IMG/VR virus record: IMGVR_UViG_3300047567_000058
Span: 16,405-80,404 of that record
DNA from: a virus
Lineage: Duplodnaviria; Heunggongvirae; Uroviricota; Caudoviricetes
Strand: one strand, 5' to 3'
DNA: 64,000 bases
In this document: one piece after another, positions 55,013 through 58,942 of the stretch
How positions within the stretch are numbered: the first letter of the stretch is position 1
Layout: each line of letters opens with the position of its first letter
Notes under the pieces: generated by a model
Seen by the model: the letters and a program-made list of their open reading frames with translations, nothing else
Database searches by the model: none
What the model was told of the DNA's origin: nothing
Program-made: the position numbers and the translations under genes

Positions 55013-56446
55013 CTACTGGGCATACACCTCATCAATCACTTTTTTGATGACGAATATCGCTGCAGGAATGAGCATGTAGTCATGCACGCTTCTGGTGTAT
55101 TCGCGAGAATTTAGCTTCTTCAGGAGATCGTCGCTGAGCTCGATCGTTGTTCCTAAGACGTACTTCCTGATAAGATCGAAAAGAACGTCGTCTGAATATT
55201 CTTCGGCCATCTCGCTGCTGAGCATGTCGTTGAGGCCGGCTGCCAGAACGTCGGCGGCTGTTCCGTTCGACACGATCTTGTACACGTCGATCGGAATGGC
55301 GCTTGTCGATGACGACACCTGATAGATCAGGTCTCCGACAGACAGATTGCTCTTGGTCTCAAGATCGGCTTCGTTTACGAATCTGTGGTCTGCGTCAGAG
55401 CTTGCGAATTTGGTGTTCTCGTCTGCCAGGATGTAATGGAACGCGCCGAGCCAGAACGATTCCTTGCTGTCATAGAACTCCAGAACATAGCTCTTTCGAG
55501 GATTCAGGAAGAACGGAAGGTTGCGGTTGTCTTTGAGGCCGTAATCGGCAACCATCGCGAACGAGCTCTCCATTCCGACGCAATTGGTCTGAGTCTCGAC
55601 TGCGTTGTAGATGCTCTTATGGTAGATCTTGTCCAAATACAATCCCGGGTTCTCGATCTCATTGACGTCGAGGATGAAGAAGTCATCCATAACCTTTGGG
55701 GAATATTTGGCCAGAACCTTGTTCTTATGCAAGAAATGCTGAAGATATGGGCTCCAGACGTCAGAGGCGTTTCCTTCGTCGTCGTATTCGCGATAGACGA
55801 ATTCGTCCATCTCGGCGTCGTAGAAATCCTCAGAGAAGCGGTCGATCATGTCATCGACGACCACTTTGGCCTTGTCGGCTTGGTCGGCTGTCGTTTTCTT
55901 GATGATCGTCTTGTCTTTTCCGCCGATGTTCTCGTACTGGGTTTCATACTCGTCCTCGACATTTGACAGAATGGTGCTGGTGTCGTCTGGGTATAGCTCC
56001 CATTGCACCTCATAGAAAGTGTTGTTTGTAGGTTTATCGAACTGGTACTCTGTTACTTTGAAAAGATGGTCTCTGAGCCCATCTGTGTCGAATGCGAAGA
56101 AATCCTCGGACGAAGGCTGGATGCTGTTCGGAAGAAGGACGAGCTTTCCGGTGATCTTCGTCTCAAGGCCTCTGTTCGACAGCTCGTTTTGGATGGCAAG
56201 CGGATCGACGCCATAGGCGACGACGTCGTTTATCTTCTTGTATTTGCGCGGAGAGTTTGCCCCGGTGAACGAATGGACGTCCTCAAGGTCATAGTCCTGC
56301 TTCGAAGCGATGTCGTCATAGCTGTAGTAGGTCAGATAGGTCGGGCCTCCCTCCATGTATTTGGAGTAATCCTGCGACGTGGCCTTGACGTAGCTGTCTA
56401 CAGATTTGCGGACGATGTCCTTCTCTCTTCTTAGTTTTTGAGCCAT
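55013..56446 (-). CDS. hypothetical protein (477 aa)
   Basis: ATG at M16 of the track ORF with RBS ggagga. No polymerase motifs B or C. Confidence 0.5.
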   Translation of the reverse strand: MAQKLRREKDIVRKSVDSYVKATSQDYSKYMEGGPTYLTYYSYDDIASKQDYDLEDVHSFTGANSPRKYKKINDVVAYGVDPLAIQNELSNRGLETKITGKLVLLPNSIQPSSEDFFAFDTDGLRDHLFKVTEYQFDKPTNNTFYEVQWELYPDDTSTILSNVEDEYETQYENIGGKDKTIIKKTTADQADKAKVVVDDMIDRFSEDFYDAEMDEFVYREYDDEGNASDVWSPYLQHFLHKNKVLAKYSPKVMDDFFILDVNEIENPGLYLDKIYHKSIYNAVETQTNCVGMESSFAMVADYGLKDNRNLPFFLNPRKSYVLEFYDSKESFWLGAFHYILADENTKFASSDADHRFVNEADLETKSNLSVGDLIYQVSSSTSAIPIDVYKIVSNGTAADVLAAGLNDMLSSEMAEEYSDDVLFDLIRKYVLGTTIELSDDLLKKLNSREYTRSVHDYMLIPAAIFVIKKVIDEVYAQ

Positions 56447-56460
56447 GTGCGATCCTCCGT

Positions 56461-56510
56461 GAGGGAAATAAAAAAAATAATCCCGAAACAATCGTATAAT
56501 CGATTGTTCG
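56461..56510 (-). terminator. intrinsic terminator: hairpin cgaacaatcg-attatac-gattgtttcg then GGATTATTTTTTTTATTTCCC (minus strand)
   Basis: Stem of about 10 bp. Confidence 0.7.
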
Positions 56511-56513
56511 AGA

Positions 56514-56906
56514 CTATTTTAGCTTGCTAAGGTTGTCTTTCAGGATCGAAATGGCGCCATCGAGCGCCTTGGAATCCTCTTCCAGGATGTCGATCAGGAA
56601 CATCTGATTCTGCTGGGAGTAGCCTCTGGAGAACAGATCATTGACGATCACCGAAAGAGAGTTCTTCATGTTGAGGTTGATGAACTTGGCCTCGTCGGCC
56701 ATGCCGTTGATGGCGCAGTCGTATGCGGCTTTGGATATGCCGTCAGCGACTTTGGTCATCAACCTCTCGCGGTAGAACTGCACATCCATCCTCTTCTGTA
56801 TCTTCTGATCCTGGCTGACCTCGCAGAAGAGGATGAACGACGCTATCGCCGAAATAGGATCGGCCATATCGTCTGAGACCATCTTGGCTTTCCGGCGGCG
56901 GTTCAT
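56514..56906 (-). CDS. hypothetical protein (130 aa)
   Basis: ORF track; 4-nt overlap with the upstream gene. Confidence 0.45.
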   Translation of the reverse strand: MNRRRKAKMVSDDMADPISAIASFILFCEVSQDQKIQKRMDVQFYRERLMTKVADGISKAAYDCAINGMADEAKFINLNMKNSLSVIVNDLFSRGYSQQNQMFLIDILEEDSKALDGAISILKDNLSKLK

Positions 56907-58942
56907 TTACCGGCCTCCGCTTTTCTTGCCGCGATGATCGAGGCGACTTTCTTGATGTTGTCGTCGACGGACGGAAGGAACATGTACTTCTCTCCGAGGC
57001 GGCACCAGTTCTGGCTTTCGATCTCGTCTGACAGCGTCGGGCCCAAGTCGCTGGTCTCGGCGAAGCTTCCTTTGTCGTCGGACAGAATGTCGCTGTCGTC
57101 TTCGGATGTGTCATCCGAAGCGGCCGATTCATCCTCTCCTGGAACGGAAACGTCGTCGATCTGGCCGGCTCCGTCGTCTTTCTCGCTGAGCTTGAACAAG
57201 CCGCTGTATCCATACTTCTTCTTGAGATTGGACTTGATCGCGTCATCGACGAGGATGAACTTTCCGATCTCGGTGCTGGAATCAAGATTGAGCGTGCGAA
57301 GGATCGAAGGGTACAGAGATGAGAGGTCTTGGTCGCAGACGTTCTCGAACACGCGGTTCGATCTCTTGCCGCTTGGCATCATCATGCCAACAGGCTCATT
57401 GAGGTTAGGATCGGAGACGAGCGCGCCGTATTTGTCGGCGTGATTGATCTGGGCGGTGTATGCCGGATCGCTGTCCACGATAGGGGACACATCGCGATAG
57501 TCGGTGTCGTAGACCTTGCCATAATCGCCATAATCGGCATTCTTGTTGCCGCTCATGATGAATCCGTTCTCGATGGAATACTTGTTGATGAAGTTCGGCA
57601 GCGAGATGGACTTTGAGAATACCTTTTCCTTGCGGGTGTTGGTAATCTCGGAAAGCGTCTGAAGAAGATCGATATCGAGAGTCTTGTCTTCGATCATGAG
57701 AAGAAGCAAGGCGTCGTGCATGTTGTAGTTCGTGAATTTGCGGAAGTTCTTCCAAGGAAGATTCTTGACGGTTTCGCCTGGGGCGAACGGGAGCTTCTCT
57801 TTCTTCAACTCGAAGTTGGCGATCGCGTCTAGTCTATAGCTATCGCGTTTTCCTTCGCTGAAGTGAATGACCGCATAATAAAGCATCTGGTCTTCCCAGT
57901 TGATGCCATCAAGCACCATGAAGTTATCAAGCCGAGACCCGATCTTCTTGGTTTCGTTCTTTTGGTAGAAAGCCCGAGGAGAGATCCAGACATCGGTGAC
58001 TCCGTCGGCCGCTTTCTGATGCGCGTATTTTGAGTCACAGACCATCTCAAGCATCATTTGATCAGCAGTAACTCCTGCCGGGCGTTCGACTTTGCGATAA
58101 AGATATCTGAGCCGATTGATCAAAGTGATGATATCGAAGTTGCAGTTCCAGCCAAGGACGTAATCTGGATCTATTTCGTGGATTTTCTTGAAGAACGCCT
58201 CAATCGTATTGAGCTCTCCTTCGCACATTATGACGTTGACATCAAGCTTCAAATTGTCTTCTTTGAAAATTTGGTCCGCCATGTCTTTCTGAAATCCCTG
58301 CAGATCTCCAGCGAATTCCTCAAGAGATTTGTTAAGAGGATTATGATTGACAAACGTGTAGATCTTTTTGAATTTGCCATCAATAAGGGTGATGACGTTG
58401 ACCGGGCATGGCGCGACGTCTTCGTCTGGGAAACCTGAGAATCCGTTATCGCGGAATCCGTTCGGCATGAGATCTACCTCGATATCGAAATAGCATTTGT
58501 GAAGTTTATAGTTTGGATCTGGATCATACTCATTTTGGAACTTGGCGATGTATCTGTCGCTGAGATCCATATCCGCTCCATAGATCCACGGATGCTTGAA
58601 GATGTTGTGCATGTCATAAGAGTAGATGCCTTTGGTGGTGGCTACCGCTTCATAGAAACCGAGCGCGTTGGTTTTCGAAGCGATGTCTCTTAGAAGAAGA
58701 TCGCTGTAAACCTTAACTTCCTGGACCTTATAGTTCTCGATGTACATCGGAGGCTTGATCGCCTCTGGGGATTCCTTGTCCTTGATGATGTAATACGATA
58801 CCTCTGGCCGGTCATAAAACAACGTCTTCTTGACGCCGTTCTCATCCCGATAGATCAAAAGAATCGTGTCATATTCGGCTCCAGACGAAGACTTTCGTCT
58901 GCCTTTAAACGACTTGATCAGAGTGCCTATCTTCTTGCCCAT
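56903..58942 (-). CDS. family-B DNA polymerase, N-terminal part: 3'-5' exonuclease domain plus polymerase motif A; ends in an acidic tail before motifs B and C
   Basis: Exo I KCYFDIEVD. Exo II YVLGWNCNFDIITLINRL. Exo III YNMHDALLL. Motif A DLSSLYPSIL. No KxxxNSxYG or YGDTDS downstream. Confidence 0.75.
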   Translation of the reverse strand: MGKKIGTLIKSFKGRRKSSSGAEYDTILLIYRDENGVKKTLFYDRPEVSYYIIKDKESPEAIKPPMYIENYKVQEVKVYSDLLLRDIASKTNALGFYEAVATTKGIYSYDMHNIFKHPWIYGADMDLSDRYIAKFQNEYDPDPNYKLHKCYFDIEVDLMPNGFRDNGFSGFPDEDVAPCPVNVITLIDGKFKKIYTFVNHNPLNKSLEEFAGDLQGFQKDMADQIFKEDNLKLDVNVIMCEGELNTIEAFFKKIHEIDPDYVLGWNCNFDIITLINRLRYLYRKVERPAGVTADQMMLEMVCDSKYAHQKAADGVTDVWISPRAFYQKNETKKIGSRLDNFMVLDGINWEDQMLYYAVIHFSEGKRDSYRLDAIANFELKKEKLPFAPGETVKNLPWKNFRKFTNYNMHDALLLLMIEDKTLDIDLLQTLSEITNTRKEKVFSKSISLPNFINKYSIENGFIMSGNKNADYGDYGKVYDTDYRDVSPIVDSDPAYTAQINHADKYGALVSDPNLNEPVGMMMPSGKRSNRVFENVCDQDLSSLYPSILRTLNLDSSTEIGKFILVDDAIKSNLKKKYGYSGLFKLSEKDDGAGQIDDVSVPGEDESAASDDTSEDDSDILSDDKGSFAETSDLGPTLSDEIESQNWCRLGEKYMFLPSVDDNIKKVASIIAARKAEAGK

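Follow-up and report, generated by a model that had tools for sequence, protein, structure and literature searches.

A split family-B DNA polymerase in an uncultured jumbo phage: an intact N-terminal subunit gene with a long acidic linker

The Caudoviricetes virus record IMGVR_UViG_3300047567_000058 of IMG/VR contains, in the 64,000-nucleotide stretch from position 16,405 to position 80,404 (hereafter the window), an open reading frame (ORF) that encodes the front portion of a family-B DNA polymerase (PolB) and stops after polymerase motif A. A first-pass annotation of the window had left two possibilities: either the polymerase is split and its other half is encoded elsewhere, or the gene is truncated. 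Our analysis upholds the first and excludes the second. The ORF is in all likelihood the complete N-terminal subunit of a two-gene PolB whose chains likely associate noncovalently and share an active site. Two-gene PolBs are typical of jumbo phages with multisubunit RNA polymerases, namely, AR9/PBS1, S6/MarsHill, phiR1-37, Huxley, and many uncultured lineages. The split arrangement is already known: annotations of cultured phages record it, and families in Pfam and PHROG cover it. The first-pass annotation did not recognize it as the standard arrangement of AR9/PBS1-like and related jumbo phages. What is new here is an uncultured lineage whose acidic linker is unusually long.

The gene and its elements are listed below, with invariance and gaps referring to an alignment of 31 sequences of this half of the polymerase (the N-half).

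56903-58942, minus strand: gene for the PolB N-terminal subunit, 679 amino acids, ATG start, stop codon at 56903-56905
58472-58489, minus strand: Exo I, FDIEVD; D153 and E155 invariant
58133-58150, minus strand: Exo II, WNCNFD; N266 and D270 invariant
57713-57727, minus strand: Exo III, YNMHD; Y406 and D410 invariant
57305-57334, minus strand: polymerase motif A, DQDLSSLYPS; D537, D539, and L543 to S546 invariant
57059-57181, minus strand: acidic linker of variable length, residues ~588 to 628; gapped in most homologs, predicted to be disordered (predicted local distance difference test [pLDDT] score of ~30)
56906-57058, minus strand: conserved C-terminal tail module, residues 629 to 679; predicted to form three helices

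The product is laid out as an N-terminal domain, a 3'-5' exonuclease, a first palm segment with motif A, the acidic linker, and the helical tail. It matches the Pfam family DNA_pol_B_exo1 (E value of 2.4e-9) and three PHROG "DNA polymerase" families (2e-45 to 2e-34). Exo I to III and a PolB-like fold identify the family-B N-terminal and exonuclease region, but of the three motifs that a complete single-chain PolB carries on one polypeptide (A, B, and C), the protein has motif A alone. The Exo motifs, the DxxSLYPS motif A, the acidic stretch, and the stop reported in the first-pass annotation are all present, and Exo I to III and motif A remain invariant over the 31 sequences, down to 39% identity. 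Between motif A and the stop lie 133 residues. Those directly after motif A (residues 547 to 590) are conserved; the linker that follows is among the longest in the family, and its length appears to be an unusual trait of the window's subclade. The conserved part of the tail spans residues 629 to 666, with D639 and G650 invariant and D632, S643, L656, and P657 nearly so.

Loss of motifs B and C through pseudogene decay, a frameshift, or an error in assembly or sequencing would also leave an ORF that stops past motif A with nothing downstream continuing it. However, 16 contigs from independent Joint Genome Institute (JGI) and Logan assemblies encode the identical 679-amino-acid protein, and in 4 independent JGI/Logan assemblies the gene has the same neighbors. 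A homolog search with the N-half, covering 5.8 billion proteins, returned 111 matches, about 100 of which are clusters with 35 to 69% identity, nearly all of them 640 to 700 amino acids long and found on contigs of up to 340 kb. Full-length PolBs (835 to 1,082 amino acids) appear among the 111 matches only at 23 to 24% identity. The recurrence on 16 contigs, the roughly 100 homolog clusters of the same length, and the invariant residues exclude truncation, sequencing error, and a decaying pseudogene to the point that we regard them as scarcely credible, and the conserved tail before the stop, the nature of the downstream genes (see below), and the lack of any motif B- or C-like sequence in any frame of the window point the same way. 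We discard readthrough as well. The exonuclease residues, the motif A residues, and the C-terminal tail module are under purifying selection, and the gene is best described as encoding the intact N-terminal subunit of a naturally split PolB.

The next two genes on the strand do not supply the missing half, as the first-pass annotation had noted from their lack of motifs B and C.

56514-56906, minus strand: ORF of 130 amino acids, overlapping the polymerase stop by 4 nucleotides; no family match; not a polymerase fragment
55013-56491, minus strand: virion structural protein gene; Pfam Phage_H_T_join_2 (9.5e-15); not a polymerase fragment

The product of the structural gene also matches PHROG 3013, "virion structural protein" (2.5e-20); JGI gene calls place the start of this gene at 56446 (477 amino acids). 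The 4-nucleotide overlap of the small ORF with the polymerase stop suggests translational coupling. We considered this ORF as a conserved polymerase accessory and rejected it because its conservation extends no further than the closest relative (38%). Within the 64-kb window, a motif search of all six frames found no KxxxNSxYG- or YGDTDS-type sequence, a profile of PolB C-terminal halves matched only motif A itself, and gp152 of phage AR9, a C-terminal half, gave no match by phmmer or tblastn. The C-half was also not found within 9 kb past the window's high-coordinate end, and a megablast search of the region against cultured phages gave no match.

The first-pass annotation had proposed a search of the rest of the genome for a C-terminal PolB fragment, and a protein with motifs B and C and KKxY was indeed found outside the window, in the same samples. 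In a back-translated peptide scan of IMG/VR, a query with the single window protein gave no match, whereas an alignment-based query succeeded. The C-half encoded at loci L150 and L174 is 594 to 639 amino acids long and contains KILANSYYG, VVDTDSNF, and NKKNY. L150 comes from sample 3300047159, which also yielded one contig with the window region, and samples 3300047159 and 3300044973 each contain both halves. The longest contig for P0286, a cluster member of the L150 C-half, is 219,300 bp; it is likewise 219,300 bp for the window's exact N-half, for a 781-amino-acid protein, for the topoisomerase, and for the HD protein. The G+C contents of the partner's surroundings (0.503) and of the window (0.507) match. 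An exact 30-mer from the C-half gene had 0 hits in the metagenome_contigs collection, which lacks these samples. From the shared 219,300-bp longest contig and the shared samples, we conclude that the partner is probably encoded in the same genome as the window but outside it, which in the window phage would be >14 kb upstream or >57 kb downstream of the N-half. We rejected P0181, on a 306,119-bp contig, as the partner of the window's clade, as it belongs to a different sublineage; the right family was found via L150.

The two halves also show parallel divergence across relatives: the N-half is 69% identical to P0002 and 49% identical to P0028, and the C-half is 66% identical to P0221 and 44% identical to P0232. 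In one relative, the N-half (P0028) and the C-half (P0232) each have a longest contig of 332,878 bp, and the C-half lies at 266,252-268,270 of ENA ERZ27256871 k141_5175099. Ten IMG/VR contigs carry both halves, 3.7 to 54 kb apart and on the same or opposite strands. Stand-alone homologs of AR9 gp152 form a large family of 630 to 760 amino acids that matches Pfam PF00136 and PF20286 ("divDNApol"). In two alignments, the C-half invariants are motif B (K, N, and G), DTDS, and KKxY; a near-invariant methionine opens the C-half. Neither alignment has an invariant acidic residue upstream of motif B, and motif A is therefore on the N-subunit only.

The profiles and models of the two halves agree on where the polymerase is divided. 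The N-half profile aligns to residues 85 to 435 of RB69 gp43, with motif A at 404 to 435 (8e-23), and the C-half profile aligns to residues 451 to 531 of Tgo polymerase (fingers, motif B) and to RB69 residues 705 to 826. The motif A of Tgo lies near residue 404, that is, upstream of the start of the C-half alignment at 451. The AlphaFold model of the N-half (pLDDT of 81) is confident for residues 1 to 480, with a disordered linker and a helical tail, and its best Foldseek match is RB69 gp43 (E value of 1e-21 over ~470 columns). The C-half model (pLDDT of 89) is confident throughout and also matches RB69 gp43 best. From these alignments and models, the break falls inside the palm, between the motif A strand and the fingers.

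The same division is seen in cultured phages. The best cultured matches to the N-half, at 25 to 29% identity, are from Bacillus phages AR9 and PBS1, Staphylococcus phages S6 and MarsHill, and Yersinia phage phiR1-37, followed by Erwinia and Aeromonas jumbo phages at ~21%. AR9 gp132 is annotated as "DnaQ-like exonuclease and partial catalytic domain" and ends ~50 amino acids past its DFDLSSLYPS, with a tail (...NKWHNLPTTSD...) resembling that of the window protein. AR9 gp152, annotated as "DNA-polymerase catalytic subunit," carries KLLANSFYG and VVDTDS and lies 15 kb from gp132 on the same strand. Both are listed as replication proteins in a transcriptome paper (PMC5312081), and the same two chains, with lengths of 573 and 644 amino acids, are present in Staphylococcus phage DC4 (PMC10638138). 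The pair is also annotated in Staphylococcus phages MarsHill and Madawaska, Bacillus phage BpSp, and Yersinia phage phiR1-37. In Erwinia phage Huxley, gp61 (592 amino acids) has a variant motif A, DADLTQAYPS, and a tail reading ...FFLLPDKDD..., so that here, too, motif A and an LP-containing tail sit on the exonuclease chain.

The AR9/PBS1 pair resembles that of the window in that the N-chain stops shortly past DxxSLYPS with an LP-containing tail, the C-chain begins before the fingers and carries KxxxNSxYG, DTDS, and KKxY, and the two genes are nonadjacent. In AR9 and PBS1, as in the window, the N-half lies downstream of an SbcC-like gene, and both have a multisubunit RNA polymerase. They differ in that the window protein is only 25 to 29% identical to its AR9/PBS1 counterparts and is ~125 amino acids longer, mostly owing to its acidic linker of ~40 residues and to a more extended tail. 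The C-half also differs in its distance and in its setting. In L174 (JGI 3300047159 Ga0455824_0197, positions 2398 to 8009), the C-half adjoins genes for a Gp23-like major capsid protein and an S77 prohead protease, while in AR9 it lies by the gene for the non-virion RNA polymerase beta' subunit. The gene neighborhood of the C-half is thus not conserved.

Pieces of the beta subunit of a multisubunit RNA polymerase in the window mark an AR9/PBS1-type jumbo phage, corresponding to the "group 1" jumbo phages of Iyer et al. 2021 (PMC7824862), and the contigs involved reach at least 219 kb. The pieces, which together span 10978-14792, match successive parts of phage multisubunit beta-subunit profiles.

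10978-12177, plus strand: RNA polymerase beta, first piece
12050-13039, plus strand: RNA polymerase beta, second piece
13317-14792, plus strand: RNA polymerase beta, third piece

The first two of these ORFs overlap in different frames; the three-piece layout could reflect a natural split, an intron, or a frameshift.

The two chains would work together as follows. The N-subunit carries the N-terminal domain, the exonuclease for proofreading, and the palm's first strand, which includes the motif A aspartates. The C-subunit, from a separate gene that lies outside the window and probably tens of kilobases away, carries the fingers (motif B) and the thumb as well as the remaining palm (motif C, DTDS; KKxY). 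The chains are translated independently and would then associate noncovalently, so that one chain would contribute motif A to the catalytic site and the other would contribute motifs B and C. The N-subunit's conserved helical tail, past the flexible acidic linker, is a likely docking element for the C-subunit. Because the N-chain has an invariant motif A and the C-chain has none, a noncovalent heterodimer completed in trans is the most economical reading. A precedent for a working split PolB is the 43A and 43B pair of Aeromonas phage 25 (see below). A more detailed version of this scheme is tentative, and we think it rather doubtful as a whole: the active site would form only upon heterodimerization, the three-helix tail would dock, and the acidic linker would serve as a tether or as a DNA-mimicking autoinhibitor. 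If correct, this would provide a regulated step in replicase assembly, for example, after the chains had been delivered separately to the replication compartment. The literature searched apparently holds no biochemical or structural characterization of a composite-site PolB from this phage group.

The alternative that fares best is that the 679-amino-acid protein is a stand-alone proofreading exonuclease with a relic of motif A and that the polymerase chain is catalytically self-sufficient. Group 1 and phiKZ polymerases have been described without a fused exonuclease, the latter being "encoded elsewhere," and the location of polymerase and exonuclease on separate chains has already been stated for phiKZ-group phages (Iyer et al. 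2021, PMC7824862; Kazlauskas and Venclovas 2011, PMC3201878). The C-halves found here match PF20286, the divDNApol family of the divergent phiKZ-group PolB. Those publications treat the exonuclease as a separate accessory, whereas in the pair described here the exonuclease chain bears motif A and the C-chain lacks it. Motif A (D537, D539, and LYPS) is invariant in the 31 N-halves and retained in AR9 gp132, and the variant in Huxley gp61 still has both aspartates and YPS. A relic would not stay so constant, which argues that motif A is not one. In the C-halves, for their part, none of the acidic residues ahead of motif B is invariant, and their alignment begins only at the fingers, from Tgo residue 451 onward. 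We therefore consider a stand-alone exonuclease unlikely.

Some observations nevertheless count against a composite polymerase in this phage. The 2011 analysis of phiKZ/EL puts both catalytic aspartates of phage EL on the polymerase chain (PMC3201878), so the composite-site model may not hold for every group 1 jumbo phage. In the N-half model, the palm around motif A (residues 490 to 560) is predicted weakly, with pLDDT values of 45 to 58, as might be expected for a relic; such values would fit a partial domain in need of a partner, and a degenerate region would look alike. In sample 3300047159, the halves are on two different contigs (136,826 and 145,948 bp), and the link from the window to its C-half is drawn from the equal longest contigs and the shared samples described above.

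A two-gene polymerase could also have arisen through a recent split by a mobile element. Such an arrangement is found in the T4-related Aeromonas phages 25 and 44RR, where a family-B replicase is likewise made as two polypeptides, 43A and 43B, and is active; those of Aeromonas phage 25 are reported to copurify and to polymerize DNA (PMC2988022, citing Petrov 2010). The window itself holds homing endonuclease-like genes (DUF7487 and HNH). However, the 43A and 43B genes are adjacent, with either an untranslated spacer or a gene for a homing endonuclease between them, and their split is recent, whereas the halves of the window type are far apart, with the C-half absent from the window and the 9 kb beyond its end, and full-length relatives are found only at 23 to 24% identity. 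Since the split is common to AR9, Staphylococcus phage S6, Yersinia phage phiR1-37, and Erwinia phage Huxley, at 21 to 29% identity, it is ancient, and a recent origin is very improbable.

Finally, the halves might be rejoined covalently, by a split intein or by RNA trans-splicing. The PolBs of Methanobacteriales and Nanoarchaeum equitans are also naturally split; the archaeal splits are attributed to intein history, and in N. equitans the two genes are nonadjacent and the protein is rejoined by a split intein (PMC4104785). The gene for anaerobic ribonucleotide reductase in the same window, nrdD, is full of inteins and homing endonucleases, which indicates that such elements are active in this genome. 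Unlike the archaeal case, however, the window N-half carries no intein signature, with no Hint or Intein_splicing match, and the C-halves list only PF00136 and PF20286. The tail of the N-half is helical and conserved, in AR9 there are only ~50 residues past motif A, and the C-half starts with a nearly invariant methionine. A stretch of ~50 residues is too short for an intein N-fragment. In several genomes, the halves are on opposite strands, which rules out cis-splicing. We give covalent rejoining almost no credence, and noncovalent association of the two chains remains our preferred reading.

For annotation, this means that the gene described here and its ~100 metagenomic relatives should not be labeled pseudogenes or partial genes and that a partner should be sought elsewhere in the genome. 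More broadly, these phages exemplify a natural division of PolB that is both widespread and ancient and that runs through the catalytic palm, leaving motif A and motifs B and C on different chains.

Other products of the window are topoisomerase IA, an HD protein, SbcC, RNase H, ClpP, and a ClpB-like ATPase; its 64 kb yielded no tRNA genes. The nrdD region (24151-29713, minus strand) consists of four ORFs with Intein_splicing/Hint, LAGLIDADG, and HNH plus NUMOD3 matches, and its last piece has a C-terminal glutaredoxin/thioredoxin-like domain. From these matches, nrdD looks like a gene with multiple inteins, possibly together with an intron or a free-standing endonuclease. Two DUF7487 proteins (15368-16339 and 43267-44070, both minus strand), which have an MTES_1575 restriction endonuclease-like domain in one case and a C2H2 zinc finger in the other, are probably homing endonucleases of the free-standing type. 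ClpP immediately followed by a ClpB/AAA_2-type ATPase (34545-37525, minus strand), an SPFH/Band 7 protein (31332-32639, minus strand), and a MoxR-like AAA ATPase with a VWA-like DUF2201 partner (39841-43169, minus strand) make up a large proteostasis-type set. An 843-amino-acid P-type (E1-E2) cation-transport ATPase with a HAD domain (2746-5277, plus strand) is an unusual auxiliary gene for a phage.

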